Translations under genes and position numbers: made by a program
Notes under the pieces: model-generated
What the model was told of the DNA's origin: nothing
Databases searched by the model: none
What the model saw: only the letters and a program-made list of their open reading frames with translations
IMG/VR virus record: IMGVR_UViG_3300033412_000014
Location: 1 to 60,274 of that record
Length of the DNA: 60,274 nt
Direction: 5' to 3' (one strand)
DNA from: a virus
Taxonomy: Duplodnaviria > Caudoviricetes
Shown: positions 6,069 through 20,264 of the stretch, in pieces
How the letters are laid out: the number at the start of each line of letters is the position of its first letter
How positions within the stretch are numbered: the first letter of the stretch is position 1

Positions 6069-6611
6069 GTGCTCAAGTTTCTGCTTCTGGTGTCGCCCAT
6101 CATCCTCATTCTCCTGTCCGCGCTGCCCAAGGTGCTCATCGAGCGGTCCCGCCGGCGGTACGTCGAGGAGTCCATCGACGAGTACCGAAGTACCCATCCC
6201 GTCGATGAGACGACGAACGTCACAGCCGACGACGTCGATCTCGACGCCAAGTGGGACGTGTACTGGTCGAACTCGCGTGCCGAGGAGAACGCGCTACGCG
6301 CGGACCTCAACGACTGGGTCGGCTGGACATCCACACTGGAGGAGCGGTTCGCGCTGGACTGCGACCGGGTCATCAAGCAGTTTGCCATCGACGCGATCGT
6401 GTTGCAGGCCGAGACCGCCAGTCGCTGTGGTGGCTGGAAGAACGACCTCGATCGTCGCTCCGATCTCATCATCGCGAACAGTGGCCACAGCATTCCTAAC
6501 CTCAACCGCGCCCTCAAGGTCGAGATCGCCGAGTGCACCGCGACCGAGTGGACCAAGGAAGACGGCGAGGCGCTGGCCGCGTACATCGACTCCGAGGAGG
6601 TGAAGGTGTAG
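6069..6611 (+). CDS. Membrane-anchored hypothetical protein
   Basis: N-terminal hydrophobic helix; GAGGAG RBS. Confidence 0.65.
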   Translation: MLKFLLLVSPIILILLSALPKVLIERSRRRYVEESIDEYRSTHPVDETTNVTADDVDLDAKWDVYWSNSRAEENALRADLNDWVGWTSTLEERFALDCDRVIKQFAIDAIVLQAETASRCGGWKNDLDRRSDLIIANSGHSIPNLNRALKVEIAECTATEWTKEDGEALAAYIDSEEVKV

Positions 6612-6706
6612 TGGATAAGTTCTTGGGTGTCATCCTAGTGGTGGCCGCCGCGTTCAGCATCATCGGCTACGGCATGCGTCGTACCGGTGCTCATCGGAGG
6701 AGGTAG
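6611..6706 (+). CDS. 31-aa single-TM peptide
   Basis: VDKFLGVILVVAAAFSIIGYGMRRTGAHRRR fills the gap exactly between neighbours. Confidence 0.5.
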   Translation: MDKFLGVILVVAAAFSIIGYGMRRTGAHRRR

Positions 6707-6708
6707 TC

Positions 6709-7659
6709 ATGCTCATCATCGTTGAGGGTCCGGACGGTTGTGGCAAGTCGACCCTCGTACAGCAGCTCACCGAGGTGATCGAGCGCGAGCAGCCCGGCGA
6801 GAAGATCGAACGACTGCACCGTCGTCCACCGACGATGCACCCACTGGATGAGTACGTCACACCTCTGCTGTCCTACCGGCCGCAGCGAGGACACCACATC
6901 ATCTGCGATCGGTGGCACGTCGGTGAGTGGGTCTACCCGTCCGTCCTCGGACGAAAGACCCTTGCCGACAAGGCGTTGTGGTACTACACGGAGATGTTCC
7001 TCGCGTCACGTGGCGCGCTGATCATCTACCCGTCCTACACGCAGGACATGCTCGTCCAGCGTGTCACCCAGCGCGGTGACGACATGATCGAGGTCGACCA
7101 GCTTGCGAAGATCGCGGGATCGTACGCGTTCATGGCCGACAAGCACCTGACCGTCAACACGCGGGTGCACGGTAAGTCACCTGAGTCCCTCGTCGCGCTG
7201 GCACGCTGGCGCGAGACCGTCACCGAGCGGTTGAACCACCTGACCACGTACGTCGGTCCGCCGAAGCCGGAGTGGGTACTTGTCGGTGAGGTTCGCAACA
7301 CCACGTACGACGGTGACCTGCGTCCCGCGTTCATGCCGTTCCGCGGTACGTCCGGCCACTACCTCATGTCGGCGCTGAGTGTTCGGCAGCTGCGCAGTGG
7401 TCTCGGCATCATGAACGCGTGTGACGTGGATGACGTTCATGAAGCGCAGTATTGGACGTTTGATGACGGTGCCGTGGTTCCTCTTGGGAGCCACGCACAT
7501 GCTAAGCTGAACGGTGCAGGACGAGCGTTCCCCGGTGTGCCACACCCTCAGTACATCCGACGGTTCCACAACAAGTGCGCCGATGACTACGCCGACGCGA
7601 TCACGAGGGCACGACAGGGACAGGAGAACATTCAGTGGCGACCTTCTTCAAGTGTGTAG
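6709..7659 (+). CDS. Thymidylate-kinase-like dNMP kinase fused to a C-terminal uracil-DNA-glycosylase-superfamily domain
   Basis: IIVEGPDGCGKST P-loop and ICDRW; C-terminal LVGE..N, PF..TSG.YL, N, VPLG..A and PHP pattern of UDG family 4/5-like folds. Confidence 0.8.
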   Translation: MLIIVEGPDGCGKSTLVQQLTEVIEREQPGEKIERLHRRPPTMHPLDEYVTPLLSYRPQRGHHIICDRWHVGEWVYPSVLGRKTLADKALWYYTEMFLASRGALIIYPSYTQDMLVQRVTQRGDDMIEVDQLAKIAGSYAFMADKHLTVNTRVHGKSPESLVALARWRETVTERLNHLTTYVGPPKPEWVLVGEVRNTTYDGDLRPAFMPFRGTSGHYLMSALSVRQLRSGLGIMNACDVDDVHEAQYWTFDDGAVVPLGSHAHAKLNGAGRAFPGVPHPQYIRRFHNKCADDYADAITRARQGQENIQWRPSSSV

Positions 7660-8471
7660 ATGGCCGTGAGGCCTACCGGAACGTGTTGCGTCAGGTTCAC
7701 GAGCAGGGTGAGGTGCGTTCGCCTCGCGGGTTGAAGACCTTCGACATCGGGTACGCAACGATCGAGCTGATGAGCCCGTACAACGCGCTCGCCGTCGGCC
7801 TGGGTCGGAAGCTGTCGAAGCGCGTCGCGGCCGCGGAGGCGATCCAGCTGATCGGTGGCTTCGCCGATCCCCAGCTCCTCCTCCAGGCGTCACCGAACTT
7901 TGCCCGGTATATCGAACCGTCGGGAGCATTCTGGGGAGCGTACGGGCGACGGATAGCCTTCGGTAACCAGCTACCGTCGGTCGTCCGCAAGCTCCAAGCG
8001 GACCCTGAGACCCGCCAGGCGATCGTGACCCTCTGGGACCCACAGCACGACAACGACCCGGGCCACAAGGACTACCCGTGCACGCTCGCACTCGGGTTCT
8101 CCCTCCAGCGGGGCAAGCTCGAGCTGGACGTCACCATGCGCTCCAACGACGTGTGGCGTGGTCTGCCGTACGACATTTTCCAGTTCACGCAGCTTCAACT
8201 GACCGTCGCGAACGTCCTTCAGCTGCAGCCCGGGCGGTACCGTCATCACACGTACTCGCTCCACTTGTACGCCGACGATCTCGATGACGCGGTGGAGTGC
8301 TACGAGAACGACGAGGACCTCGTGCCTACCTTCCTTCCCACTGGCCTTGGCCAGATCGGTGACACGATCAATGAAGTGATGAAGCAGGCGAGGCGACTTG
8401 TGGACGTCCCGTGGGGGAACTACAGCGACTCGGAGAGGTGGTACTGGGATGCGCTCCACCCGACCCAGTGA
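7635..8471 (+). CDS. Thymidylate-synthase-superfamily enzyme, probable dCMP hydroxymethylase or methylase
   Basis: YGRRI, DPETRQA, catalytic YPC, MRSNDVWRGLPYD with Asp (8172-8174) at the base-specificity position, SLHLY. Confidence 0.85.
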   Translation: MATFFKCVDGREAYRNVLRQVHEQGEVRSPRGLKTFDIGYATIELMSPYNALAVGLGRKLSKRVAAAEAIQLIGGFADPQLLLQASPNFARYIEPSGAFWGAYGRRIAFGNQLPSVVRKLQADPETRQAIVTLWDPQHDNDPGHKDYPCTLALGFSLQRGKLELDVTMRSNDVWRGLPYDIFQFTQLQLTVANVLQLQPGRYRHHTYSLHLYADDLDDAVECYENDEDLVPTFLPTGLGQIGDTINEVMKQARRLVDVPWGNYSDSERWYWDALHPTQ

Positions 8472-8982
8472 CGACGAACTGTTCTCTCGCGTCGCTAAGA
8501 TGATGGCGACGCGCAGTCTATGCGACCGTGACCGTGTCGGCGCGGTGATCGTCGACACCCAGCTTCGGATCGTCGCCACGGGTCGCAACGGTCCACCCGC
8601 TGGGTTTCCTCACGAGGAGCAGACGTGCAGCACGTGGTGTCGTCGCGCGATCAACGGTCATCCACTCAGCTCCGACTACCGTGACTGCCCGTCACTTCAC
8701 GCCGAGGTCAACGCGCTTCTCACCAGTGACCGCAGCCGTCACGAGGGTGGTACTATCTACATCACCAGCGACCCGTGCTGGTCGTGTGGCAAGATGATCG
8801 CGAACTCCGGTCTGTCGACCGTGGTCGTGATGTCCAGTTCGCAGAAGGCTGCGGAACGCAACGCGAGCGCGACCTACACGTTCATGGAGTCGTTTGGCGT
8901 CGACGTGGTGTTTCACGAGGAGAAGGAGAAGGACGATGGAGGAAACGAAGAAGCAGCCGCGAGGCACTACGACCTGGCCTGA
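8449..8982 (+). CDS. dCMP deaminase
   Basis: RSLC, VGAVIV, ATGRNG, HAEVNA and PCWSC zinc motifs. Confidence 0.92.
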   Translation: MRSTRPSDDELFSRVAKMMATRSLCDRDRVGAVIVDTQLRIVATGRNGPPAGFPHEEQTCSTWCRRAINGHPLSSDYRDCPSLHAEVNALLTSDRSRHEGGTIYITSDPCWSCGKMIANSGLSTVVVMSSSQKAAERNASATYTFMESFGVDVVFHEEKEKDDGGNEEAAARHYDLA

Positions 8983-9055
8983 TGTAGCAGTCGTCGCCAT
9001 CGTCGCGTTCTGCATGCTGGGCACGGTCGCACTACTCGTCTGGGGTTTCAAGTGA
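8936..9055 (+). CDS. 39-aa single-TM peptide
   Basis: AAGGA RBS; WPDVAVVAIVAFCMLGTVALLVWGFK. Confidence 0.5.
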   Translation: MEETKKQPRGTTTWPDVAVVAIVAFCMLGTVALLVWGFK

Positions 9056-9159
9056 GACGTGGTGATTGGAACGTCATCCTCATTTACGTAGGTCTCTTGA
9101 TCTTCTTGGTTGTGCTCTGGGCCGTACTGATCTGGGGTGGCTGGGTTGTCATTGGATGA
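9052..9159 (+). CDS. 35-aa hydrophobic peptide
   Basis: GTGA overlap with the previous ORF; VILIYVGLLIFLVVLWAVLIWGG. Confidence 0.4.
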   Translation: MRRGDWNVILIYVGLLIFLVVLWAVLIWGGWVVIG

Positions 9160-11041
9160 TGTTGAGCTCCACCTGATCGAGTCACTGGATGACGTCGCGT
9201 CGTTCACCCGGTGGCTCGGTCAGGTGCGAAACGGTCCTAAGCTCGCGTTCGACACGGAGACGACGGGGCTGAGCCTGGAGAAGGATCACGTTCGACTCTG
9301 TCAGATCGGTGACTCCGTACACGGCTGGGCGTTCTCGTGGGAACGCTGGTCGGGCATCATGGCCGACGTCGTGAAGACGTACGAGGGAACCCTCGTCGGA
9401 CACAACGCTCCGTTCGACTGGGGCTTCATGAAGAAGGCCGGAGTCGAGCTGCCACGGCGTCGCATTCGTGACACACGCCCACAGTGTCACATCATTGACC
9501 CGACGTTCTCGACCGCGCTGAAGAACAACGCGGTGCGGTACGTGGACCCGCGTGCGAAGAACTCGCAGGAGGACTTCGCCGCCACCGGCTGGACGTGGTC
9601 CACGGTGCCCATCGACTACGAACCCTACTGGTCCTACGGCGCGCTCGACCCCGTGCTGACGAACCAGCTCGACGACTACACGTGGCCGAGGATTCAGGGA
9701 ACACCCTCAGAGACGGCGTTCAACATCGAGAACTCCGTCCAGTGGGTTACCTACGACATGGAACGCTACGGTGTCCACATCGACGTGCCGTACGTTCAAG
9801 AGAGCTACGACCGGTTCACCCAGCACTGCGAGACGATCAAAGAGTGGTGTATCCGGAACTACAACGTCAACCCAGGACGCAACGCTCAGGTGATCGCGAG
9901 GCTACACGATGACGGGGTCGAGTTCAGCAAGGCCACCAAGGGCGGTTCCGTTTCACTGGACGCTGAGGTCTTGGCTGGAATCGATCATCCACTCGCGCGG
10001 CAGGTGCTCATCCGCCGTCGCTTGGAGAAGCTGGCCTCCACCTACCTCAAACACTACCTCACCGAGACTGACGAGAACGACCTTCTCCATCCGTCCATCA
10101 ACACTCTGGGCGCACGGACGTCTCGTATGTCAATGTCCAACCCGAACTTCCAGAACCTTCCGCGTGTCAGCGAGACCAATCCAGCGGCGACGGTGATCCG
10201 GAACTGTGTCTCTGCACGTGAGAATCACACACAGGTGTTCTGTGACTTCTCCCAGATCGAGATGCGGATCCTCGCGTGGCTCGCGCAGGACGAGAACATG
10301 ATCGCGGCGTTCAGGAGTGACGGCGACTTCTTTGTCAACCTCGCGCAGCAGGTGTACTCCGACCCGACGATCGACAAGGAACACCCGCTTCGGTCACGCA
10401 TCAAGAACTTCGGCTACGCGAAGATCTACGGTGCGGGTCTCGCTAAGATGGCGTGGACGGCCGGTATCGACATCGAGACCGTGCGATCGAACATGCTCCT
10501 CTTCGACGGCACGTTCCCCGGTGTTCGTCAGTATCAAGAACACACCTTCAACCTTGCGATCCAGCGAAAGCATCTCGAAGGTGTCCCGTACGCCGACTGC
10601 CCACTGTCCGGTCGTCGACAGCACGCCGAGCCGGGCAAGGAGTACGCACTCGTCAATTATGTGATCCAAGGTGCTGCAGCATCTCTCTTTAAGATGAAGC
10701 TGCTGGAGCTGGATCAGGCCGGTCTCACCCCGTGGATGATGCTCGTCGTTCACGATGAGGTCATCCTCGACGTGCCGAACGAGCACGTGGAGGACGTGGT
10801 CCATACCCTACACGCGGTGATGAACGATGATAAGATCATCGCTCCGGTGCCGGTCGAGGCAGAGATCTCGTTCGGTGCACGGTGGGGTCAGAAGATGAAG
10901 TGGAATCGAGACAGGTGGTTGAGTGGTGACTGGCGTGAACAAGCGGCCATTGGCGGTAATCGGGGTGGATCCGGGCAAGGCAACCGGCCTGACGCTGTAC
11001 TACAACCGGGCGCTCATCGCCAAGAACTCACTGCCGGCTAA
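9137..11041 (+). CDS. polA: Family A DNA polymerase with 3'-5' exonuclease
   Basis: AFDTETTG, HNAPFD and YGALD exonuclease motifs; PNFQNLP, DFSQIEMR, R..IK.F.YAKIYG and VHDEV polymerase motifs. Confidence 0.96.
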   Translation: MAGLSLDDVELHLIESLDDVASFTRWLGQVRNGPKLAFDTETTGLSLEKDHVRLCQIGDSVHGWAFSWERWSGIMADVVKTYEGTLVGHNAPFDWGFMKKAGVELPRRRIRDTRPQCHIIDPTFSTALKNNAVRYVDPRAKNSQEDFAATGWTWSTVPIDYEPYWSYGALDPVLTNQLDDYTWPRIQGTPSETAFNIENSVQWVTYDMERYGVHIDVPYVQESYDRFTQHCETIKEWCIRNYNVNPGRNAQVIARLHDDGVEFSKATKGGSVSLDAEVLAGIDHPLARQVLIRRRLEKLASTYLKHYLTETDENDLLHPSINTLGARTSRMSMSNPNFQNLPRVSETNPAATVIRNCVSARENHTQVFCDFSQIEMRILAWLAQDENMIAAFRSDGDFFVNLAQQVYSDPTIDKEHPLRSRIKNFGYAKIYGAGLAKMAWTAGIDIETVRSNMLLFDGTFPGVRQYQEHTFNLAIQRKHLEGVPYADCPLSGRRQHAEPGKEYALVNYVIQGAAASLFKMKLLELDQAGLTPWMMLVVHDEVILDVPNEHVEDVVHTLHAVMNDDKIIAPVPVEAEISFGARWGQKMKWNRDRWLSGDWREQAAIGGNRGGSGQGNRPDAVLQPGAHRQELTAG

Positions 11042-11399
11042 CGACGCGCCTCGCGAGGTTTCCCGCTGGATCGTCATCGCGCGTGAGCACCTGGAAGATC
11101 CACAGATCATCATCGGTGTGGAGCGTTACCAGACCGGTGGCAACACGGTGAAGAAGACGCGACAGGCCGACCCGGTCGAGCTGCTCGGTGCATGCCGACT
11201 GATCGCACGAGGTGACTCAGCGATCACCGTTGTCGTCTCCAACGCCTCCGATGCGAAAAAGATCGGGAGTCCTACCACGCTCAAGCGCATCGGCTGGTGG
11301 ACACCTGGACACGATCATATCAACGATGCGGCATCGCAAGTTCTTCGCGTTCTGGCACTGACGAGACCTGAAGAGTTCGCAGACGTCATCGGTTTGTGA
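10923..11399 (+). CDS. RuvC-like Holliday junction resolvase
   Basis: IGVDPGKATG, IGVERY and HINDA motifs; exact start uncertain (10923-10935). Confidence 0.8.
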   Translation: MVTGVNKRPLAVIGVDPGKATGLTLYYNRALIAKNSLPANDAPREVSRWIVIAREHLEDPQIIIGVERYQTGGNTVKKTRQADPVELLGACRLIARGDSAITVVVSNASDAKKIGSPTTLKRIGWWTPGHDHINDAASQVLRVLALTRPEEFADVIGL

Positions 11400-11441
11400 T
11401 AGGATAAACACGCAAGCCTGGGTAAACAGGGAGAGGACAGG

Positions 11442-13226
11442 ATGGCATACGCCGAGTACAACCCCACCCGTAACCGGATCGATGTGACGACCCGGTACGA
11501 GGAGAAGGAACTCATCAAGGCGATTCCCGGGTCGAAGTACCACGGTGAAGAGAAGATCTGGTCGGTTCCCGCCACGTTCGTCGCGTGCGTTCAACTACGT
11601 GGCCTCTTCAAGGATGAGCTGCACATCAGCCCACGACTCAACTCTTGGGCAACGCTTGAGCGTGTCGACCGCATCGACCAGGCGATGGCTCTTCGCACGC
11701 GGCTCGAACCTGAGACGTGGATCAACAAGCTGCTCTACCCGTTCCAAGAGGCCGGTCAGGACTTCCTCGGTGTCGCAGGTTCGGCACTTCTCGGTGATGA
11801 GATGGGCACGGGCAAGACGATCCAGCTACTTGCCACACTCAAGGACGAGGGCTACCCCGAGGTTGGGATGCTGCCCGCGCTCGTGATCTGCCCGAACTCG
11901 ACGAAGCATAACTGGGCTGACGAGGCCGCAAAGTGGTTTCCTGAGGCGAAGTCGTACGTGATCTCCGGTGGTGTGGTCCAGCGGCGAAAGCTCTTCAACC
12001 AGGCCGGTGACGACGCACTCGTGATCATCAACATCGAGGCGGTTCGCAACCACTCGCGTCTCGCGGGTTACGGGTCCATCCACCTCACCGATGCTGAGAG
12101 ACAGCCGAAGGAGCTCAACGAGATCCCGTTCCGTTCGGTCACCTTCGATGAGGCGCACCGGATGAAGGACCCGAAGTCGAAGCAGACCCGCGCTGCGTGG
12201 GCTGTCGGTCACGGTCCAACGGTGAGAAACCGGTTCGCGCTGACGGGTACACCGATCGTCAATGACCCGTCGGACCTCTGGTCCATTCTTCACTTCCTCG
12301 CTCCTGAGGAGTTCCCGACACGGTCGAAGTTCATCGACCGCTACTGCCTCCAAGCGTGGAACTCGTACGGCGGACTGAGTGTGATCGGTGTCCAGCCGGA
12401 GACCCGTGACGAGTTCCAGAAGATCATCGGCCCACGGTTTCGTCGGGTGACGAAGGACGAGGTGTTGACCCAGCTTCCGCGTAAGCAGCGGCAGCTCGTC
12501 AAGGTGCAAATGACGCCAAAGCAGGCGAAGGCCTACGGTGAGATGGAGTCACAGCTCGCGACCCGCGTCGACGGCGGTGTGATCGTTGCCGCGTCGAACC
12601 TCACGGCGCAGATTCGCCTCCTACAGTTCGCTGGATCGATGTGTGATGTTGCACCCGACGGCACGGTCACTCCCGTCGATCCGTCACCTAAGGTTGACGC
12701 ACTGCTGGACATCATCGACGCGGCGCAGGGTAAGCCGATCGTCGCGTGCGCCGTCCAGCGTAAGCTCATCGAGCTCGCCGCTAAGCGACTGGACAAAGAG
12801 AAGATCCGGTACGGTCTCATCACCGGTGCGGTCGACGAGTGGACACGGAAGCAGAACCTGAAGAAGTTCCAAGATGGTGAACTACCCGTCCTGCTCTTCA
12901 CCATTCAGGCAGGTGGCACCGGTCTCAACATGACCGCCGCCGACACCATCGTGTTCATCCAGCGTGACTGGTCGATGGTGAACAACCGGCAGGCCGAGGA
13001 CCGTGTTCACCGCATCGGCTCCGAGGTGCACGAGTCGATCAACGTCATCGATCTCGTCACCGAGGGCACCGTGGAAGAGACGGTCTTGACACGCTACCTG
13101 GAGAAGGTACACCGTCTGGATCAGATCACCCAGGACCGTGCGCGAGCCAAGGCAAACGGCCTGACGGTCACCGAGCTCGACGAGCTGGAGTCCTTCATCA
13201 TGAACGCACACCTGGGGGAAATGTGA
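11442..13226 (+). CDS. SNF2-family DNA helicase
   Basis: DEMGTGKT, DEAH, LTGTP, GGTGLNM and QAEDRVHRIG. Confidence 0.95.
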   Translation: MAYAEYNPTRNRIDVTTRYEEKELIKAIPGSKYHGEEKIWSVPATFVACVQLRGLFKDELHISPRLNSWATLERVDRIDQAMALRTRLEPETWINKLLYPFQEAGQDFLGVAGSALLGDEMGTGKTIQLLATLKDEGYPEVGMLPALVICPNSTKHNWADEAAKWFPEAKSYVISGGVVQRRKLFNQAGDDALVIINIEAVRNHSRLAGYGSIHLTDAERQPKELNEIPFRSVTFDEAHRMKDPKSKQTRAAWAVGHGPTVRNRFALTGTPIVNDPSDLWSILHFLAPEEFPTRSKFIDRYCLQAWNSYGGLSVIGVQPETRDEFQKIIGPRFRRVTKDEVLTQLPRKQRQLVKVQMTPKQAKAYGEMESQLATRVDGGVIVAASNLTAQIRLLQFAGSMCDVAPDGTVTPVDPSPKVDALLDIIDAAQGKPIVACAVQRKLIELAAKRLDKEKIRYGLITGAVDEWTRKQNLKKFQDGELPVLLFTIQAGGTGLNMTAADTIVFIQRDWSMVNNRQAEDRVHRIGSEVHESINVIDLVTEGTVEETVLTRYLEKVHRLDQITQDRARAKANGLTVTELDELESFIMNAHLGEM

Positions 13227-14233
13227 CCGTCACGATCCGTCGCATCTCCAACTCGGAGGTGCAGACCTTCAAGCGATGCCGTCGGCAGTGGTGGCTCGCG
13301 TGGCATCGCGGACTTCGTCCCACGCGACCGTCCGTCATGGGTGCGTTGCGGATCGGTGAGCGGATCCACGACGCTCTCGCTACCTACTACATTCCGGGTC
13401 TCGGTCCAGATCCACGGGAACGACTGGAAGTCCTCCTGGAGGAGGACCAGAGGTTCCTGAGCGCCAACAACGACGTGTCTCCTGAGGACCGGAAGCAGTT
13501 CAACTCGGAGGCCGACCTTCAGCGCATCATGCTCGAGGGTTACATGCAGTGGATCACTGAGACGGGTGCGGATCAGGACTTCATCATCATCGAGTCTGAG
13601 CGGTATGTGGAAGCAGCGTTCTTCCGGATCGGCGACGTTCAGGTCGTCATCATCGGTCGACTGGACGTACTCGTCGAGGACGCGTGGTCCAAGCAGCTCG
13701 CGTTCATCGATCACAAGACCACCGGTTCGATCATCGAGTCACTCAAGGGCATCAAGCTCAACCCACAGATGCGGATGTACCGGCTCATCCTACAACTCGC
13801 CGAAAAACGTGATGTGTCTCTTGCCGTCTACTCGATGCTTCGCAAGGTGAAGCGGACTGTGAAGGCAAATCCGCCGTTCTTCCACCGTGAGACGATCATA
13901 CACAATCACATCGAGACCACAACGTTCTCCGAGCAGTTGACGGGCGTCATTCACGACATCATCGAGACGGAGCATCATCTCAGTGACGTCTACACGCATC
14001 CTCGCACGGTGCATAACCGTAACGTCTACCCGACGCCTGGTGCACACTGCCGGTGGTGCCCGTTCGAGCGTGAGTGTTTGATGATGGACGACGGCTCCCG
14101 TGCCGAGGACTCACTCGCTTCACGGTTCGTCGTTGGCGAACCACTGCACTACTACGGAAGGGACGATCTTGCCCGAGTTCAACCCGGATCACGTCCTGTC
14201 GACCCTCATCCACGCCGGATCGAAGCAGGGTAA
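13223..14233 (+). CDS. Cas4/RecB-like PD-(D/E)XK exonuclease
   Basis: SNSEVQTFKRC, GRLD, IDHKT, QMRMY and CRWCPFEREC. Confidence 0.88.
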   Translation: MTVTIRRISNSEVQTFKRCRRQWWLAWHRGLRPTRPSVMGALRIGERIHDALATYYIPGLGPDPRERLEVLLEEDQRFLSANNDVSPEDRKQFNSEADLQRIMLEGYMQWITETGADQDFIIIESERYVEAAFFRIGDVQVVIIGRLDVLVEDAWSKQLAFIDHKTTGSIIESLKGIKLNPQMRMYRLILQLAEKRDVSLAVYSMLRKVKRTVKANPPFFHRETIIHNHIETTTFSEQLTGVIHDIIETEHHLSDVYTHPRTVHNRNVYPTPGAHCRWCPFERECLMMDDGSRAEDSLASRFVVGEPLHYYGRDDLARVQPGSRPVDPHPRRIEAG

Positions 14234-14936
14234 GACCACCCTCGCGTCGACGTCACCGCCTCCGCATCTCGCACTCGATGCGGAAGGTGGCTGGAAGTTC
14301 ATCGATGAGGCTGGTTACAAGACCGGTAAGAAGCTCCGGCGCATCCGCTGGAACCCTGCCACCGAGCCGATACCGCAACACGACGGCACCTGGGATCTCT
14401 GCAGTGTGACCGTCCGGAACTGGGCGACGATGACCCTCGTCTACCAGCACCTCACCCAGCGACCACACCAGTTCCGTTCGATCACCTGGGACTCGATCAC
14501 CGAGGTCCAGCGAACCTGCCGCGACGCTCTCAAGGGCACCGAGGCGATGCAGCTGCAGGACTGGGGCGTGCTGCTAATTCAGATGGACGATATGATTCGT
14601 AAGTTCCGGAACCTCACCTTGGATCCGAGCAACACGGTGCAGGTCGTCAACTTCATCGCTGAGACGAAGATGCGGGACGGTAAGTGGCGTCCCTACATGC
14701 AGGGACAGATCACCGACGCTCTACCGTATATGGTCGACGTCTGTGGGTACCTCACTACCCAGTGGGGTATGGATGACGCGGGTCAACCGACCGTGCGGCA
14801 GCCGGTCCTCAACATCTCACCAAGCGACTACTGGGAGGCGGGCGAACGTGTTCAGGGCCGCCTCCCCAACTCGATCCTTCTCCCCAACATCACCAACATC
14901 CTCAACTCCGTCTATCCCAACGCCGTCACCAACTAA
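14169..14936 (+). CDS. Sak4-like AAA recombination ATPase
   Basis: HAGSKQGKTT, DAEGG, WDSIT and DVCGYL; lies between exonuclease and SSB; TTG start inferred. Confidence 0.8.
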   Translation: MPEFNPDHVLSTLIHAGSKQGKTTLASTSPPPHLALDAEGGWKFIDEAGYKTGKKLRRIRWNPATEPIPQHDGTWDLCSVTVRNWATMTLVYQHLTQRPHQFRSITWDSITEVQRTCRDALKGTEAMQLQDWGVLLIQMDDMIRKFRNLTLDPSNTVQVVNFIAETKMRDGKWRPYMQGQITDALPYMVDVCGYLTTQWGMDDAGQPTVRQPVLNISPSDYWEAGERVQGRLPNSILLPNITNILNSVYPNAVTN

Positions 14937-14955
14937 CACACATCAGGAGTAACCA

Positions 14956-15558
14956 GTGGCTGACATGAACTTCGGTAAGATGCGTCAGGACGCGATGACC
15001 GTCCTGACGGGAGACTTCGTCGTTCGCTGCATCGAGGCCAAGCCGACGAAGAACTCGAACGGCGACGACATGATCAAGACCAAGCTGCAGATCATCGCCG
15101 GCCCGTACACCGGACGGAACCTGCCCAACAACTTCAACATCATCCCGAGCAACGTCCCGGCGCTGCAGATGTTCTTCAGCCACATGAACTGCTTCGGCCT
15201 CGACGAGGCGTATTTCGCCACGCTGCCGAACGGCGAGGCCGGTGTGTACAAGATCGCTCAGGACCTCGTCGGTCGCGTCGTCGAGGTGAAGGTCGGATCG
15301 CGGAAGTGGCAGAATGTGGATCGTGAGAACATCGAGTCCATCAAGCCGGCGCCGGCCGGTCTCAGTGGCGTGGGGCAGCCCGTCGCGTTCGCCCAGGCGC
15401 TCCCCACCGCGCTTCCGACGGCGCTTCCGACGGCGCAGCTCGTCGCGCCGCAGGTGACCGGATCGGCCACGGTGGCCCTGCCGCTCGACATCGGTTCCGG
15501 GCCGGAGAACACGGCCGCGGCGACCGGTGGTGAGCCGGAGCCGGAACCCGCGTTCTAG
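14956..15558 (+). CDS. Single-stranded DNA-binding protein (DUF669-like)
   Basis: OB-fold pattern (GDFVVRC, GPYTGR, LVGRVVEVKV), low-complexity linker, acidic/aromatic tail EPEPAF. Confidence 0.75.
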   Translation: MADMNFGKMRQDAMTVLTGDFVVRCIEAKPTKNSNGDDMIKTKLQIIAGPYTGRNLPNNFNIIPSNVPALQMFFSHMNCFGLDEAYFATLPNGEAGVYKIAQDLVGRVVEVKVGSRKWQNVDRENIESIKPAPAGLSGVGQPVAFAQALPTALPTALPTAQLVAPQVTGSATVALPLDIGSGPENTAAATGGEPEPEPAF

Positions 15559-15623
15559 TCGATCACCGAACATGATAGAGTGGGAGCAGGTCACACGGCC
15601 TGCTCCCTCACCTTAGAGAGGAC

Positions 15624-17015
15624 ATGATGGGACGTAAGATCCTGTATGGAAAAATAGGACGATCGATGCCGCTGACACTCGCGAAGTGCGGCACCCTCGG
15701 TGGTGACATCGAGATGACCGCGACACTCGTTCGACTCGCCAACGCATATCCCGACGACGAGATCATCCTCATCGGTCGGAACACTGGTGAGAACCCGCAG
15801 GACGTCGGTCTTCCTGCGAACATCACGAACCCGTGGACCGAGTGGAGTCCACGACTGCGGACGTACCTGAACGAGCAAGGACTCAACCACCCGAACCTGA
15901 CGGTGGAAGAACACATCAAGGCGCTCAGCTACATCATGCACCTAACCGTCGACACGTTCCTCAGCGCCGACGCGATGGTCATGTGGGTCGGTCAGCACGG
16001 CACCTCGAACACACCGATCCCGAAGATCGGCGACCGGTCCATCCTGACGAAGCCGCAGGATGCGTTCACCTACTACTCCGGCTTCCTCCTCCGCGGCATC
16101 AACCACTGGCGTGACGTTGATCCCATCCAGCGGGAGCCCATCTTCCTCAACGCCGATCCGCGCAACTACCTCAAGATGCGCGACATGAAGTGGCCACTCC
16201 AGCATCCGGTGCTGACCCAATACCGGTTCGGTCACCGGATCAAGCACGAGCGCTACGGTGACCCGAACAAGCCCGAGTTCATGTCGTGGACCGAGGACCA
16301 ACGGATCAGCTACCGCACGCGTGAGAACCTCGGCTACACCGATGACGGTGACGTCTGGACCGCGTGGGTCGACAACACGTACTCTCGTCTGGAACTCAAC
16401 GCGCTACTGCCCGGCACGCCGTCGGGTGATCTGCTGACGTTCGACGGTGAGTGGGCTGTTCGGGAGCCGTTCGGCGTGGTGATCAACGAGGCACGTGCGA
16501 TCGGTGTTCCGGAGCGACTTGGCCGCCTGCGTGCGATGCACGACTGGATCATGCCGTTGCGACCCGCGTTCATCCACGGGACGTGGTCCGACAAGGCGAT
16601 GACGTCACTTCGCGAGAAGTGGGGCGCGGGACTGTGCATCGAGCCGCTACCGTGGTCGCAGTACGCGGCGAAGATGCACCGCGTTCGTACGACCCTGACG
16701 ACGCCGTCCAGCGGGAGTGGCTGGGCCACGACCAAGCCGTGGGAGGCGTTCGGTCTCGGTGTGGTGTGCTTCTTCCACCCCGAGTACGACACGCAGAACA
16801 ACATCCTACGAGACGCACCCACGTTCCTCACGAACTGGCTTCGTGTGAGGACGCCGGCTGAGCTTCGCGACAAGGTCATTCACCTCAACACGACTGCCGG
16901 TCGCAAGGACTGGGAGCTCATCGTCAACGCACAGCACGATCACTTCCAGTACAACGTGCTCGGCACCCCCACCTTCATGAAGATGATCGACGACCGTCTG
17001 AACGGAGCCAAGTAG
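15624..17015 (+). CDS. GT-B glycosyltransferase resembling T4 DNA beta-glucosyltransferase
   Basis: C-terminal TKPWEA...PEYDT...V...AELRDKV..L...QHD parallels T4 BGT WET...EEFDT...V..RAELIDRV..L...QHD (recalled); ADPR parallels BGT TDIR. Confidence 0.72.
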   Translation: MMGRKILYGKIGRSMPLTLAKCGTLGGDIEMTATLVRLANAYPDDEIILIGRNTGENPQDVGLPANITNPWTEWSPRLRTYLNEQGLNHPNLTVEEHIKALSYIMHLTVDTFLSADAMVMWVGQHGTSNTPIPKIGDRSILTKPQDAFTYYSGFLLRGINHWRDVDPIQREPIFLNADPRNYLKMRDMKWPLQHPVLTQYRFGHRIKHERYGDPNKPEFMSWTEDQRISYRTRENLGYTDDGDVWTAWVDNTYSRLELNALLPGTPSGDLLTFDGEWAVREPFGVVINEARAIGVPERLGRLRAMHDWIMPLRPAFIHGTWSDKAMTSLREKWGAGLCIEPLPWSQYAAKMHRVRTTLTTPSSGSGWATTKPWEAFGLGVVCFFHPEYDTQNNILRDAPTFLTNWLRVRTPAELRDKVIHLNTTAGRKDWELIVNAQHDHFQYNVLGTPTFMKMIDDRLNGAK

Positions 17016-18083
17016 TTGAAGACAACAATCATTCTTCCGTCCATCCGCGTACCGAGTAACCTCACGAGCTGGGTGACGCAGCTCGAACCCGAAACCGACG
17101 AGATCATCGTCGCCGGCAACGAGGCGTCACCGCACGCGGCCATCACCGAGTTCCTCGGCAGCCTGACGAACCAGCACGGTGTGCGAACCACGTACCTCGG
17201 CCCGCGTGATCCTCGCGTCACCGAGCGTGCGATCTACTCGTTCATCGCACCGAATCACACCGCGCGACGAAACTTCGCGCTGCTCCACGCGCTGGAGAAC
17301 CGACCCGACGTCCTCGTCACCATAGACGACGACAACTACCCATACAAGGCCGACTGGCTGAAGGGCGTGAAGGCGCTCCTCGACCCGGAGCAGCCGAATC
17401 ACCGCATGATCATCAGCTCGGAGACGGGTTGGTGGAACGCAGGTCGTCTCTGCACGCCGTCGGTGATCCACCGTGGGTTCCCCGTGTCCGCCTGGACCGA
17501 GCGTGACACCGGGCAGGCTGCCGGGACGGGTGCAACACCGATCGGTGTCGTCGCGAGCTTGTGGCTGGATGACCCCGACATCAACGCCGTCGAGCGGATG
17601 CTGCACAACCCGCAGGTACTGAGCGTGAACTCATCCGCCACGCTCGCACCGGGAACGTGGTGCCCGTTCGACTCACAGTCCACCAGCGTGCACGGCGTGA
17701 TCGCGGACATGATGTTCATGTGGCCCGACATGGGTCGATACGACGACATCTGGTCCTCGTACCTGATGCGCGCGGTGATGGACGTCATCGGCTGGTACGT
17801 CACGTACGGCACACCGGCCGTCACCCAGGACCGCAACCCGCACACCCTCGTCAAGGACCTGCGGGACGAGCTGTTCGGCTACGAGTACACCGAGGAGTTC
17901 ACGGACTTCCTCCGTGGTCTCGTTCAGCGGGCGCCGACCGACTTCACGCACGTGTACGAGGTGTATCGCTGGTTCATGTTCGAGACGGCGAGCAACTACA
18001 AGCGCCTGCCGGGTCTCACACGCGAGTCGTTCTACGCGTGGCTGATCGACGTCGACAACGTCCGCAAGCAGACGGGACTGTGA
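17016..18083 (+). CDS. GT75/RGP (UDP-arabinopyranose mutase)/STELLO-like GT-A protein
   Basis: RRNFALL, TIDDDN, HRGFP, LWLDDPDINA, PFDSQST and GRYDDIW match RGP/STELLO signature blocks. Confidence 0.78.
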   Translation: MKTTIILPSIRVPSNLTSWVTQLEPETDEIIVAGNEASPHAAITEFLGSLTNQHGVRTTYLGPRDPRVTERAIYSFIAPNHTARRNFALLHALENRPDVLVTIDDDNYPYKADWLKGVKALLDPEQPNHRMIISSETGWWNAGRLCTPSVIHRGFPVSAWTERDTGQAAGTGATPIGVVASLWLDDPDINAVERMLHNPQVLSVNSSATLAPGTWCPFDSQSTSVHGVIADMMFMWPDMGRYDDIWSSYLMRAVMDVIGWYVTYGTPAVTQDRNPHTLVKDLRDELFGYEYTEEFTDFLRGLVQRAPTDFTHVYEVYRWFMFETASNYKRLPGLTRESFYAWLIDVDNVRKQTGL

Positions 18084-18634
18084 TGGACCGACTCGAAGAG
18101 ATCTTCACTCGGCAGCAGGTGCTGCAGGAGAAGACGTATCGTGCGCCGTTGGGATTTATGGCGCAAAGTCCCGACGTGCAAGCTGAGTACGTGCGAACCA
18201 GTGTTCTCGCGGCGACTGCTGAACTCCACGAAGCACTCAACGAGGTTGGTTGGAAGCCGTGGGCAACGGAGCGCTTCTACAACACGGACAACGTGATCTC
18301 GGAGTGCGTGGACGCCTTTCACTTCGTCATCAACATCATGCTTGCTTCAGGTGTCTCAGCGAAAGACCTCGCCGATCGATTCCATGAGAAGTACGTGGAA
18401 AAGAACGAGCGAAACGCAACGCGTCAGAAAGAGGGCTACGACGGCGTCTCGTCGAAGTGTCCTCACTGTTCGCGGGCCTTGGACGACGTCGGTGTCAACC
18501 AGGGTCGCATCCTCGACGAACTCGTCTTCGTCTGTGGCGGGTGTAACAAGGGACTCGACGCGAAGATGATCATCGGCAAGGAGAGCGTAGAGCGGATCGT
18601 GCGGATCAGCAAGATCCTCGATCAGACGGCCTAG
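18083..18634 (+). CDS. Dimeric all-alpha dUTPase/dCTPase (T4 gp56-like) with C-terminal zinc ribbon
   Basis: ELHEAL..VGWKPW, ECVDAFHF and Y..KN..N..RQ..GY; CPHC...CGGC tail; TGATG coupling. Confidence 0.85.
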   Translation: MDRLEEIFTRQQVLQEKTYRAPLGFMAQSPDVQAEYVRTSVLAATAELHEALNEVGWKPWATERFYNTDNVISECVDAFHFVINIMLASGVSAKDLADRFHEKYVEKNERNATRQKEGYDGVSSKCPHCSRALDDVGVNQGRILDELVFVCGGCNKGLDAKMIIGKESVERIVRISKILDQTA

Positions 18635-18646
18635 TACGGTTCAGCC

Positions 18647-20188
18647 ATGGATGCGATCGACGTTCTGGGGTTCGCCGGCGGTTTCACGCTTGGCATGACG
18701 CAGGCGGGTTTCAGGCTCGTCGGTAAGCGGGAGATGAAGGGCGGCTTTGGCGTCGCGAACTGCGAGGCCAACCGCCATCTCCTGGGTCACGACTGGAAGG
18801 CCGAGGCGGGCGATCCAGCGACGTGGTCCGTTCCAGTGGGAGGCGCACCTGTCGTCTTTGGTAACCCGCCGTGCTCTGGTTTCTCAGTGATGAGCTCGAA
18901 GGAGTTTCGTGGTGCCGACTCGAAGATCAACCACTGCATGTGGGCATTCGCTGAGTATGTGGCAAGAGTTCGTCCTGTGGTGGCGGTCTTCGAGTCCGTT
19001 CCGCAAGCGTTCCGATCACAAGACGGTCACGTACTCATGCAGCAGCTGCGGACGCTTGTTGAAGAGCGGACTGGCTTACTGTACACACTGCACCATGTAC
19101 TGCACAATGCTTACTCGGTTGGCGGTGCTGCGATACGCCCAAGGTATTTCTGGGTGATCTCCCAGGTGCCGTTCGGGATCGAGCGGCCGGTGATGCCGAC
19201 CTACCCGCTCTTCAAGGACGTCATCTGGGACCTGGGGATGTCACCCCAGACGTGGTCGCAGCAGCGGTACAGGCTACCTACAGCAACCGACTGGTTGAAC
19301 CCGCGAATCTCCCCTACGGGGACGTTCGATGGGCACGTAGCGGTCGACAACCCGCTGACGAACCGGCTGCGAGACCTGCTGTACGGTGTCGAGTGGCAGC
19401 CGGGCCAGCACGTCGGTCAAGTCGCTAAGACGTACTACGAGACGCACGGCACGTTGCCCACGTCGTGGCAGTCCACCCAGGAGAAGCTCGTCAAGAACAA
19501 CTTCTTCATGGGATTCACGACGCCCGTCCGCTGGAAGGCCGATCAAGCGGCACGGGTGATCACCGGTGGTGGACCCGTGATGGTCGTTCACCCGTGGCTT
19601 CCTCGAACACTGACACACCGTGAGATCGCGCGGATCCTCGGGTTCCCCGATGACTGGCTGATCGAACCACTGAAGGGCGTCCCCGGCCTGGGTATGACGT
19701 GGGGCAAGGGGATCACCGTCGACTGCGGTCGCTGGATCGGCGAGTGGATCCAGCGGGCCATCAACGGTGAACCCGGCACGTACACGGGTGAGATTATCGG
19801 TGACCGGGAAACTGTCATCGACGTTACTCACGATTGGAAACATCACGCAACCTGGTACAGTAACACGGTCGCACAAAAACATAAGACCCCTTCCCCCGTT
19901 AGAAGGAGAATCATGACCGAGCCCGAGGGTGGCGTCGTCGCCACCGAGACCGGCCCCACGCGTGCCGAGAAGATCGCTGCCCGTTCCGCCCAGGTGTACG
20001 AGCTGCTCGCCACCGGCGCCAAGACCCGTGATGAGGTCGCCACCGGCGTGGAGCCGAACCTCACCGTCGCCGAGGCCTACCTCGCGCTGGACCGCCTGCG
20101 CAAGCAGGGCACGGTCGCGTCCGAGCGGCGCGACGGCAAGAGCGTCTGGTTCCGTCCGGACGTCGTCGAGCCGGCGCCGGCCGAGTAA
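18647..20188 (+). CDS. C5-cytosine DNA methyltransferase-fold enzyme (atypical motifs I, VI and X) with in-frame C-terminal winged HTH
   Basis: GNPPCSGFS, FESV, RPRYF and RTLTHREIARILGFPDDW; motif I LGFAGG; motif X WGKGI. Confidence 0.85.
   Translation: MDAIDVLGFAGGFTLGMTQAGFRLVGKREMKGGFGVANCEANRHLLGHDWKAEAGDPATWSVPVGGAPVVFGNPPCSGFSVMSSKEFRGADSKINHCMWAFAEYVARVRPVVAVFESVPQAFRSQDGHVLMQQLRTLVEERTGLLYTLHHVLHNAYSVGGAAIRPRYFWVISQVPFGIERPVMPTYPLFKDVIWDLGMSPQTWSQQRYRLPTATDWLNPRISPTGTFDGHVAVDNPLTNRLRDLLYGVEWQPGQHVGQVAKTYYETHGTLPTSWQSTQEKLVKNNFFMGFTTPVRWKADQAARVITGGGPVMVVHPWLPRTLTHREIARILGFPDDWLIEPLKGVPGLGMTWGKGITVDCGRWIGEWIQRAINGEPGTYTGEIIGDRETVIDVTHDWKHHATWYSNTVAQKHKTPSPVRRRIMTEPEGGVVATETGPTRAEKIAARSAQVYELLATGAKTRDEVATGVEPNLTVAEAYLALDRLRKQGTVASERRDGKSVWFRPDVVEPAPAE
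19913..20188 (+). CDS. Winged-HTH protein, probably also translated from an internal start
   Basis: AGAAGGAG RBS at 19901, in-frame ATG 19913, TGGTACAGT -10 at 19853-19861; VYELLA..TRDEVA....AYLALDRLRKQG.V. Confidence 0.6.
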   Translation: MTEPEGGVVATETGPTRAEKIAARSAQVYELLATGAKTRDEVATGVEPNLTVAEAYLALDRLRKQGTVASERRDGKSVWFRPDVVEPAPAE

Positions 20189-20208
20189 CCACACGGCGGT
20201 ATCATCCC

Positions 20209-20243
20209 TCGCCACCAACCCGGTACCGTAGGGTTGGTGGCGA
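20209..20243 (+). terminator. 13-bp hairpin after the MTase/HTH gene
   Basis: TCGCCACCAACCC / GGGTTGGTGGCGA. Confidence 0.5.
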
Positions 20244-20264
20244 AAGTCGTCTTAGGGAGGCAGT

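Follow-up and report, generated by a model that had tools for sequence, protein, structure and literature searches.

Gene content and layout of the module

The window, i.e. the whole stretch of DNA analysed, comprises 60,274 nt (positions 1 to 60,274 of IMGVR_UViG_3300033412_000014) and belongs to a soil phage of the Caudoviricetes. An actinobacterial host is likely, because the window carries a WhiB gene and has 61% GC. All ORFs of the module are located on the + strand:

6709..7659, + strand: dNMP (thymidylate-type) kinase with a UDG-superfamily-like C-terminal domain, about aa 165-316 (PHROG 761; YorR)
7635..8471, + strand: thymidylate-synthase (TS) homologue, predicted dCMP hydroxymethylase (Pfam Thymidylat_synt, E 4e-20)
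8398..8982, + strand: dCMP deaminase (Pfam dCMP_cyt_deam_1, E 2.8e-17; PHROG 174, E 4.9e-35)
9137..11041, + strand: family A DNA polymerase with 3'-5' exonuclease domain (Pfam DNA_pol_A, E 3e-62; DNA_pol_A_exo1, E 8.4e-10)
10923..11399, + strand: small conserved protein (PHROG 1981, E 2.8e-7)
11442..13226, + strand: SNF2-family helicase (Pfam SNF2-rel_dom, E 8e-40; Helicase_C, E 3.6e-15)
13223..14233, + strand: PD-(D/E)XK exonuclease (Pfam PDDEXK_1, E 3.4e-24)
14100..14936, + strand: Sak4-like / AAA_24 recombination ATPase (PHROG 124, E 3.3e-24)
14956..15558, + strand: DUF669 protein (Pfam DUF669, E 2.2e-4)
15624..17015, + strand: GT-B glycosyltransferase closest to T4 beta-glucosyltransferase (BGT), predicted DNA (hmC) glycosyltransferase (predicted fold)
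17016..18083, + strand: GT75 NDP-sugar pyranose/furanose mutase homologue (profile against MtdL; AF2 fold)
18083..18634, + strand: gp56-type all-alpha dCTPase/dUTPase (Pfam dUTPase_2, E 1.6e-13; PHROG 18650, E 9.6e-31)
18647..20188, + strand: C5 DNA cytosine methyltransferase (C5-MTase) homologue with a poorly conserved C-terminal tail (Pfam DNA_methylase)

An ORF check together with domain and fold searches returned the coordinates and families of the initial annotation, the UDG half of the kinase fusion being treated separately below. The protein at 10923..11399 matches a gene of Actinomycetia phage DSL-LC01 annotated as RuvC-like resolvase (tblastn, E 3e-12). Among 68 related viral loci, a gene-neighbourhood search recovered the same gene set in synteny in the majority, so the arrangement is not due to chance. 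Outside the module, two GT2 genes (24.8-26.1 kb) and a SAM methyltransferase gene adjoin tail genes.

The GT-B and GT75 proteins

The GT-B protein (463 aa) has no match in Pfam, PHROGs or NCBIfam, and none of the 120 listed among its 595 homologues carries a Pfam domain. The BGT-like fold proposed from the sequence is confirmed by its AF2 model (pLDDT 90): Foldseek ranks 1-6 against the PDB are all T4 BGT (E 1e-9 to 1e-8), and VIA-align yields Z 21.5-22.2 for T4 BGT, the next fold reaching 18.2. The best alignment (Z 22.2) covers 316 of 351 residues. The family profile matches the T4 BGT sequence at E 0.18, not significant alone; in this weak alignment the invariant K371, W373 and E374 of the family stand opposite BGT positions 269, 271 and 272.

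Pfam matches of the GT75 protein to STELLO/RGP are weak and below cut-offs. Its family profile retrieves the GDP-L-galactose/fucose mutase MtdL (E 4.6e-76) as well as rice UAM (E 1.3e-9), and the single sequence matches MtdL at E 5.7e-29. The AF2 model (pLDDT 96.6) shares the fold of the GT75 NDP-pyranose mutases, which include MtdL and Hyg20 from antibiotic pathways of actinomycetes as well as the plant UDP-arabinopyranose mutases/RGPs, with TM 0.81-0.87 to MtdL. DDD104-106, R153, D188, S220/Q221, R241, D244, R273 and H276 match catalytic or substrate residues of MtdL, including the DDD motif, the nucleophilic Arg, both catalytic Asp and the Ser/Gln/Arg substrate residues. The sole catalytic-residue change replaces the Mn-binding His287 of MtdL by Gln271, and Gln occupies this position in all 49 aligned members of the phage-containing subfamily; loss of the MtdL-type His287 has been linked to inactive AtRGP5 (MtdL paper). 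Nucleotide preference is ambiguous: the Thr13 position holds Pro, as in UDP-using plant enzymes, and alignments differ at the Ser86 position, giving either Thr or His. The initial annotation had named this protein a GT75/RGP-STELLO-like GT-A. Its GT75 membership stands; the MtdL profile and TM match favour a pyranose-to-furanose mutase over a second transferase. The window protein lies in a phage DNA-modification module, unlike MtdL, Hyg20 and the RGPs, which act in antibiotic or cell-wall pathways. The neighbours of a GT75 homologue in cyanophage S-T4 form a general glycan cluster and include no DNA-modification genes.

The sugar-cassette slot in related loci

Cassettes were counted in the 43 of 68 loci with ≥5 kb downstream of GT-B. 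The slot after GT-B contains GT75 in 26 loci, 16 of which also possess an SDR epimerase (PF01370), and a nucleotidyltransferase cassette in 17, accompanied by an APH-like kinase and/or SIS isomerase; the two types occur together in none of the 43. The SIS proteins resemble RB69 arabinose-5-phosphate isomerase (E 5e-14), part of a proven UDP-arabinofuranose route. On the GT-B tree, cassette type changed at least five times, two changes being forced by starred branches. The dCTPase is kept in 41 of 43 loci, as is the C5-MTase; both are absent from the two loci with the most distant GT-Bs. Of 37 loci whose upstream flank is long enough, 32 keep the TS homologue; in the other five it was not found within 10 kb upstream.

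The initial suggestion of a furanose fits the mutase reading and is strengthened by the mutual exclusion of GT75 and nucleotidyltransferase cassettes and by the FAD-dependent UDP-galactopyranose mutase (UGM) that DSL-LC01 encodes at the GT75 position (PF03275, E 5e-30). It is unlikely, though still worth weighing, that the DNA instead carries T4-style glucosyl- or other pyranosyl-hmC, GT-B using a host donor such as UDP-glucose and GT75 serving another glycan, e.g. one that the two GT2 enzymes attach to virion proteins or one used in host envelope remodelling. The top structural match of GT-B is a UDP-glucose enzyme, and the GT2 and SAM methyltransferase genes by the tail, the S-T4 gene cluster and the His287 to Gln change are all consistent with such a role, as is the label of cell-wall auxiliary gene given to viral GT75 in passages of soil-virome papers. 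However, GT75 lies directly between GT-B and dCTPase, in a slot that alternates between two cassette types without overlap and holds a galactopyranose mutase in DSL-LC01. A GT2a homologue, moreover, is present in 12 of 16 GT75-type and three of four other loci reaching that far, and thus is not tied to GT75. The window's two GT2 genes could themselves use a furanose donor.

The TS homologue and the cytosine base

The top PDB match of the TS homologue is the CMP hydroxymethylase MilA (5b6d, E 3.8e-19). Relative to E. coli it shows L143D and N177D, with C146 and D169 retained. This D143/C146/D169/D177 signature (E. coli numbering) is kept in the window and 32/32 relatives, equals that of T4 gp42 and differs from that of RB69 gp48, upholding the cytosine specificity initially proposed. 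Signature positions were read according to PMC13326640 (sections 24 and 28), in which Asp at L143 is linked to hydroxymethylation rather than methylation, and D169N is diagnostic of tested 5-hydroxy-dCMP synthases. D169N is absent from the window and all 32 relatives, and from its sequence the base is predicted to be 5-hydroxymethylcytosine, not 5-hydroxycytosine.

Another C5 group, either 5-hydroxy-dCMP as in RB69 (with the sugar on 5-hydroxycytosine) or 5-methyl-dCMP (with 5mC only), appears improbable. RB69 gp48 is somewhat closer to the window's TS homologue than T4 gp42: it matches 35 loci, among them the window at E 1.3e-14, while T4 gp42 matches 15, the window not being among the 12 best listed. 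The RB69-like arabinose cassette of some relatives and the C5-MTase gene point the same way. Against this stand the missing D169N, the Asp at L143 and the hydroxyl acceptor that a glycosyltransferase requires.

Kinase fusion, deaminase, pyrophosphatase and methyltransferase

The N-terminus of the kinase fusion is a thymidylate/dNMP-kinase P-loop domain (PHROG 761, E 3.5e-12, aa 1-144) and matches YorR (2axp), in agreement with the kinase half of the proposed dNMP kinase-UDG fusion. For the UDG half the evidence is indirect. In the window's protein, the last 152-156 aa find no Pfam match at E≤10 and no match in a profile search of PDB sequences, but PF03167 UDG is matched in 5 of 16 aligned relatives (best E 8.4e-6), and the Atlas lead (0.88) is to viral clusters in which 19-36% of members carry UDG. 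The UDG-like domain is a separate ORF in one related locus (L048), and four loci (L010, L052, L053, L061) have the kinase without it.

The dCMP deaminase shows HAE and PCxxC motifs, and its true start is likely the ATG at 8449. The dCTPase/dUTPase starts at 18080/18083, as the listed start at 17657 would make its ORF overlap the GT75 gene; it matches T4 gp56 (BLASTP E 3e-8), and its relatives match T4 and RB69 gp56 over about 140-160 aa (E down to 1.8e-13). The T4-like partners expected initially, i.e. gp56-type pyrophosphatase, dCMP deaminase and dNMP kinase, are thus found with the TS homologue, adjoining PolA.

The C5-MTase scores 66.9 bits against Pfam DNA_methylase (cut-off 22) and matches M.HaeIII (E 6.9e-13). 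Its GGF, NPPC, ESV and R.R motifs are invariant across 30 family members and look ordinary, lending no support to the idea of a remodelled methyltransferase contributing to the final base. As the enzyme is conserved, yet would have no substrate if every C5 were occupied, cytosine replacement may be partial.

Comparison with known systems

The T4 glucosyl-hydroxymethylcytosine system (gp42, gp1, gp56, Cd, alpha/beta-glucosyltransferases) has the TS signature of the window and shares the gp56-family pyrophosphatase, dCMP deaminase and dNMP kinase; T4 BGT is the nearest solved structure to GT-B, at non-significant sequence similarity. Unlike T4, with its family B polymerase, the window has a family A polymerase, a thymidylate-kinase-like kinase fused to a UDG-like domain, a likely actinobacterial host and, beyond the T4 set, a GT75 mutase and C5-MTase.

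RB69, DLP3 and HY126 represent arabinofuranosyl-5-hydroxycytosine systems and Rhizobium phage RL38J1 galactose/glucose-5-hydroxycytosine (PMC13326640; He et al. 2026, as cited). Like the window, they possess a dCMP-acting TS homologue, a thymidylate-kinase-like kinase next to it and DNA glycosyltransferases of the GT-B type; their NDP-furanose donors are phage-made, RL38J1 encoding a sugar-nucleotide mutase (PMC13326640). The RB69-like SIS isomerase/kinase/nucleotidyltransferase cassette recurs in some window relatives. In contrast, the base predicted for the window is 5-hydroxymethylated (D169 kept), its mutase is of the metal-dependent GT75 type rather than FAD-dependent UGM, and its clade has siphovirus-like 60-kb genomes, whereas the 5-hydroxycytosine phages are Straboviridae or Pootjesviridae.

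DSL-LC01 (lake, metagenome-assembled, OQ999401) is syntenic with the window over ten genes, the kinase-UDG fusion being the first and the dUTPase_2 gene the last, and has an identical TS signature. It differs in its mutase, in a glycosyltransferase that looks unrelated to GT-B (E 0.069), in the lack of a C5-MTase after the pyrophosphatase and in genome size (129 kb). The searched passages of its paper do not discuss thymidylate synthase or hydroxymethylation.

Proposed pathway and product

The reading we favour, with moderate confidence, is a two-stage cytosine hypermodification on the T4 plan, yielding furanosyl-(galactofuranosyl or arabinofuranosyl)-5-hydroxymethylcytosine in virion DNA. Judging by homology, before replication the gp56-type pyrophosphatase would lower dCTP/dUTP, the TS homologue would convert dCMP to 5-hydroxymethyl-dCMP and the fused kinase would raise this to the diphosphate; PolA would place the hydroxymethylated nucleotide into DNA, and the dCMP deaminase would balance dUMP/dTTP supply. 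After replication, as fold and gene context suggest, GT75 would act as metal-dependent mutase, turning a host NDP-pyranose into an NDP-furanose donor, and the BGT-like GT-B would move the sugar onto the hydroxymethyl group of the DNA. UDP-galactose is the most plausible GT75 substrate, because the phage itself encodes no epimerase; the other candidate is UDP-L-arabinose.

It is very unlikely that the targets of GT-B and GT75 are proteins, lipids or wall polymers and that the nucleotide genes do no more than boost or rebalance dNTP supply. GT-B folds are functionally diverse and no member among the 120 listed homologues is annotated, but with N177D the TS homologue is of no use for making dTMP, linkage of GT-B to this gene and to dCTPase within the replication module is tight, and T4 BGT scores 4 Z units above every other GT-B fold.

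Furanosyl-hydroxymethylcytosine DNA therefore is the most likely product, given a GT75 that would make the furanose donor and a GT-B that would glycosylate the hydroxymethyl group. Novelty is lower than initially assumed, since a 2026 publication already describes phage DNAs with arabinofuranosyl- and galactosyl-5-hydroxycytosine (PMC13326640). As a T4-like hydroxymethylcytosine and sugar gene set is here joined by a furanose-forming enzyme, the sugar on the hydroxymethylcytosine of this phage is probably of a type so far unseen on that base.

Layout of the window

The window (60,274 bases, about 61% G+C) has an estimated completeness of 97%. Its structural arm, which includes a tape measure and a MuF-like protein, runs leftward and its early arm rightward, with the module occupying the core of the latter. 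All thirteen plus-strand ORFs listed in the initial annotation lie at the positions it had assigned. Pfam and PHROGs confirm the P-loop kinase, the thymidylate synthase (TS) homologue and the dCMP deaminase, and in addition PolA, an SNF2 helicase, a PD-(D/E)XK nuclease, a Sak4-like ATPase, DUF669, a dUTPase_2-family pyrophosphatase and a C5 DNA methyltransferase. The translated deaminase contains the HAE and PCxxC motifs. No match to the 13.5-kb region was found by megablast among 50,697 phage records. Outside the module the following features were located:

661-2157, minus strand: D5_N-type primase/helicase, upstream of the early arm
2154-3197, minus strand: Prim-Pol, upstream of the early arm and on the opposite strand
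22273-23617, plus strand: DUF932 protein and WhiB-like regulator, end of the early arm
24803-25408 and 25418-26083, minus strand: two GT2-family glycosyltransferases, end of the structural arm
26080-26721, minus strand: class I SAM methyltransferase, adjoining the GT2 genes and tail genes
52662-52733, minus strand: tRNA-Glu(CTC)
56779-56855, minus strand: tRNA-Met(CAT)

The window annotation places the WhiB-like gene in the early arm, so an actinobacterial host fits. Homologues of DUF932 are present in 33 related loci and those of the WhiB-like protein in 23. Within 43555-49598 (minus strand) the structural arm further encodes two proteins. One, of 1522 aa, is 2H-phosphoesterase-like at its N-terminus and ends in an ADP-ribosyltransferase domain (PF03496, E 2e-22). 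The MuF-like protein that follows also carries an ADP-ribosyltransferase domain at its end, and both proteins look like virion-packaged effector fusions.

Nucleotide-modifying enzymes

The TS homologue matches PF00303 with 72.5 bits (cut-off 24.3), and its nearest solved relative is the CMP hydroxymethylase MilA (E 3.8e-19). It was aligned (MAFFT) with 32 homologues from related viral loci and with E. coli ThyA, T4 gp42 and RB69 gp48 as references. The window and its 32 relatives possess D143, the catalytic C146, D169 and D177 (ThyA numbering) in 33/33 cases. T4 gp42 reads the same D, C, D and D, ThyA has L, C, D and N, and RB69 gp48 has E, C, N and D at these positions. Asp at ThyA N177 also appears in HMMER alignments to MilA and to one TS; HMMER puts a gap beside position 143 in one TS alignment, so Asp143 is assigned from the alignments by MAFFT and with MilA. 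According to PMC13326640 (sections 24 and 28), N177D shifts the substrate to dCMP, an acidic residue at 143 accompanies hydroxymethylation, admitting water and giving a hydroxymethyl rather than a methyl product, and D169N marks the flavin-dependent 5-hydroxy-dCMP synthases. From this four-residue signature and the roles reported for it, the TS homologue of the window is predicted to be a dCMP hydroxymethylase. A true TS is disfavoured by the Asp at ThyA N177. The Asn at 169 of a 5-hydroxy-dCMP synthase of the RB69 gp48 type is absent, the residue being Asp in the window and in 32/32 relatives. No dCMP hydroxymethylase in actinobacteriophages was found in our literature search.

The pyrophosphatase matches PF08761 (all-alpha NTP pyrophosphatases) with 51.7 bits (cut-off 22.9), and T4 gp56 by BLASTP (E 3e-8). 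For pyrophosphatases of the relatives, matches to gp56 of T4 and RB69 span about 140-160 residues and reach E 1.8e-13. The protein is thus of the gp56 type by homology and a putative dCTPase/dUTPase. As listed from 17657, its ORF overlaps the preceding gene; the domain itself starts at 18080/18083, where a GTG and an ATG overlap the upstream stop.

The protein initially described as a dNMP kinase-UDG fusion has a thymidylate-kinase-like N-terminal part of 144 residues similar to YorR, a reported structural neighbour of the kinases that adjoin TS homologues in DLP3 and RB69; the kinase half of that description stands. For the other half, PF03167 (UDG) is matched by the C-terminal domain in 5/16 relatives (best E 8.4e-6), but the window's own copy has no match in Pfam. 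A profile search of the PDB with this domain gave chance-level matches only and no solved UDG. Conserved stretches of the domain are G-[DE]-V-R, A-F-x-P...S-G, N-A-C-D and P-H-P-Q, and in some relatives the kinase and UDG-like halves stand apart. A conjectural role for the UDG-like domain would be the excision or binding of uracil or 5-hydroxymethyluracil.

The GT-B glycosyltransferase

The GT-B protein (463 aa) has no match in Pfam, PHROGs or NCBIfam. Its metagenomic homologues number 595 at E<=0.001; many are carried by contigs of about 60 kb, and none of those among the 120 matches listed contains a Pfam domain. With 45 sequences as input, AlphaFold2 gave a model (mean pLDDT 90) that was compared with solved structures by Foldseek, in which T4 BGT took ranks 1-6 (E 1e-9 to 1.2e-8). 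VIA-align superposed the model on T4 BGT with Z 21.5-22.2 and rmsd 4.0-4.7 over 312-318 of 351 residues, followed by BshA (Z 18.2), the HY126 arabinosyltransferase (16.4) and the T4 alpha-glucosyltransferase (15.8). At the level of the modelled fold this bears out the earlier label of a BGT-like GT-B. The GT-B profile matches BGT marginally (E 0.18 over 70 residues), and in this alignment the family's invariant K371, W373 and E374 lie opposite BGT residues 269, 271 and 272, which we take to bind UDP. In tblastn, T4 BGT reaches 2/69 searched sequences (E 4.5e-4 and 8.6e-4), the window not being one of them. The GT-B protein is a predicted DNA glycosyltransferase whose model has T4 BGT as its nearest structure.

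Among phage records, from which those close to the window may be absent, tblastn with GT-B found one partial match, in a Pseudoalteromonas phage (29% coverage), and no cultured relative. A search for prophages and hosts with GT-B patterns in the genomes of 185,579 species found no relative, the method being pattern-limited and its result weak evidence of absence.

Related loci and the variable slot

When IMG/VR was scanned with the GT-B family, 68 loci were obtained, and in most of them tblastn with the window's proteins recovered its gene order. Downstream counts are based on 43 loci that extend 5 kb or more beyond GT-B, upstream counts on 37 that extend 9.9 kb or more before it. The C5-methyltransferase and the gp56-like gene are each present in 41/43 loci; the two loci that lack them, L062 and L069, are also those whose GT-B proteins are most distant. 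The TS homologue occurs in 32/37 loci and was missed in L025, L035, L049, L063 and L066. Locus L035 (1-11129) has a GT-B homologue of 52% identity at the contig end, and the other module genes are absent from the 10 kb upstream; GT-B thus occurs in a different context too.

The slot between GT-B and the pyrophosphatase varies among loci; for its typing, 26 representative ORFs were scanned against Pfam and the loci classified by tblastn. GT75 occupies it in 26/43 loci, accompanied in 16 of these by an NAD-dependent SDR epimerase (PF01370). In the other 17/43 loci a nucleotidyltransferase is found together with an APH-like kinase, a SIS isomerase or both, and no locus (0/43) combines GT75 with the nucleotidyltransferase cassette. 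SIS proteins of the relatives are similar to the RB69 arabinose-5-phosphate isomerase (E 5e-14), and parts of their kinase and nucleotidyltransferase to RB69 gp52/53; the RB69 isomerase and gp52/53 constitute a published route to UDP-D-arabinofuranose. A quick maximum-likelihood tree of 65 GT-B sequences implies five or more changes of cassette type, two of them forced by well-supported branches. Since the loci are related to each other, such counts cannot be treated as independent. In the window GT75 stands alone, with neither an epimerase nor any other cassette gene. Three of the other loci, and the syntenic module of the metagenome-assembled Actinomycetia phage DSL-LC01, are arranged as follows:

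L052 and L053, 8169-9411: kinase and nucleotidyltransferase upstream of GT-B, with GT-B abutting the pyrophosphatase
L025, 11358-14774: APH-like kinase, two unknown ORFs and nucleotidyltransferase
DSL-LC01 (L073, OQ999401), 11021-23545: syntenic module

DSL-LC01 is the top match by E-value of the window's TS homologue in the phage database (E 4e-53, 43% identity). Ten of its genes are syntenic with the window, and it shares the kinase fusion and the TS signature. The position of GT75 is taken by an FAD-type UDP-galactopyranose mutase (PF03275, E 5e-30), and in place of the BGT-like GT-B there is an adjoining glycosyltransferase for which similarity to the window's GT-B was not detected (E 0.069). 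Separating the mutase from the pyrophosphatase in DSL-LC01 is a 329-aa protein with no match in Pfam.

GT75 as a predicted mutase

The GT75 protein (355 aa) gives STELLO and RGP matches in Pfam, all of them sub-threshold. MtdL is matched by the single sequence at E 5.7e-29 and by a profile of 49 homologues at E 4.6e-76; the same profile finds the rice UDP-arabinopyranose mutase (UAM) at E 1.3e-9. The structural model (pLDDT 96.6) has a TM score of 0.81-0.87 to MtdL and of 0.63 to rice UAM. PMC9937993 describes MtdL as a GT75 enzyme acting on GDP-L-galactose/fucose, whose pyranose form it turns into the furanose, with roles for the DDD motif, the nucleophilic Arg159, Asp195, Ser228/Gln229, Arg257 and Asp260. 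These residues, together with Arg289 and His292, correspond in the window to D104-106, R153, D188, S220/Q221, R241, D244, R273 and H276. D104-106, R153, D188, Q221, R241 and D244 are invariant in 49/49 family sequences; the counterpart S220 was seen in the pairwise alignment. The MtdL Mn2+ ligand His287 is replaced by Gln271, as Gln in 49/49 family sequences, with which metal binding might still be feasible. Positions named for nucleotide-base selectivity in PMC9937993 give mixed UDP/GDP signals.

Of the initial designation, a GT75/RGP-STELLO-like GT-A, the family assignment holds. Judged from the MtdL profile, fold and catalytic residues, however, the protein is more probably a mutase that prepares the donor sugar than a further transferase. 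Only 6 phage records are matched by GT75 in tblastn, all of cyanophages or huge uncultured phages. One homologue (6001-6909, 29% identity) belongs to the T4-like cyanophage S-T4 (L074), where its neighbours are sugar-nucleotide genes, several glycosyltransferases and a methyltransferase. Our literature search found no paper linking GT75/RGP or arabinopyranose mutases with phage DNA modification.

Donor sugar

The strongest argument available here predicts a furanose sugar nucleotide as the donor of the DNA glycosyltransferase in this viral group, because two unrelated pyranose-to-furanose families share one slot and other relatives carry an arabinofuranose route. A furanose donor could also serve virion glycosylation by the two GT2 genes and the SAM methyltransferase. 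The GT2 genes adjoin tail genes in the window, and the three genes may form a virion-glycosylation cassette, by comparison with mycobacteriophages. A homologue of one of them (GT2a) accompanies both cassette types, namely in 12/16 GT75-type and 3/4 other loci reaching that far (15 loci), and is therefore not tied to GT75.

For the DNA glycosyltransferase of the window, GT75 without an epimerase or other cassette gene must draw on a host NDP-pyranose. UDP-galactose would be the obvious candidate substrate, and plant GT75 enzymes convert it according to PMC9937993. In loci with GT75 and epimerase, the route could lead from UDP-Glc through UDP-Galp to UDP-Galf; one from UDP-xylose through UDP-L-Arap to UDP-L-Araf would fit equally well.

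The C5-methyltransferase

The methyltransferase aligns with M.HaeIII (E 6.9e-13). In motif VI, ESV, invariant in 30/30 family members and with the Glu kept, departs from the canonical ENV also seen in the HaeIII alignment. Motif I (the SAM site, GGF), NPPC with its Pro-Cys nucleophile and R.R of motif VIII are intact and likewise invariant in 30/30. The last ~110 residues have no conservation. A C5-methyltransferase has no target once every cytosine C5 is substituted, yet almost all members of the clade have the gene. Replacement may be incomplete, with methylation of the cytosines left over, or the enzyme may have another function.

Comparison with known systems and implications

The module is a real, conserved cytosine-hypermodification module, and its predicted product is likely a furanose. 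It follows the same overall logic as T4. It shares the donor-sugar theme with RB69, DLP3 and HY126, for which PMC13326640 (2026) gives arabinofuranosyl-5-hydroxycytosine; the same text reports an FAD mutase encoded by RL38J1. What sets the module apart is its predicted base (hmC), a mutase of the GT75 type and its viral lineage.

Joined into one account, these elements would describe a large uncultured clade of soil actinophages that swaps cytosine for 5-hydroxymethylcytosine and caps it with galactofuranose or arabinofuranose, a metal-dependent GT75 mutase supplying the donor. The cassettes (GT75, GT75 with epimerase, FAD mutase, or isomerase/kinase/nucleotidyltransferase) would be swapped at one hot spot, and the C5-methyltransferase homologue with its ESV motif would perform a second reaction, which could act on unreplaced cytosines or on DNA already substituted at C5. 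This account is tentative and, in its entirety, less likely than not. Counted against furanosyl-hmC are the GT2 and SAM methyltransferase genes beside the tail genes as possible users of a furanose donor, the general glycan cluster in which the S-T4 homologue of GT75 lies and the His-to-Gln change, which could impair metal binding. No report of a furanose on hmC was found in our literature search.

If true, the account would provide the first furanosyl-hmC and the first nucleic-acid-modification role for GT75 enzymes; the DNA chemistry of glycosylated cytosines would gain a new base-sugar pair, furanose on hydroxymethylcytosine, and a new enzyme family. The viral group concerned is very large and uncultured, as its 595 GT-B homologues in metagenomes indicate. 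That its donor cassettes alternate suggests an arms race against restriction that depends on modification, and the cassettes make up a natural toolbox for DNA glycosylation and NDP-furanose supply. Viral GT75 genes, which passages of two papers on soil viromes mention only as cell-wall or carbon-cycle auxiliary genes (PMC11032446, PMC12016548), are at least in this clade more likely anti-restriction DNA-modification genes.
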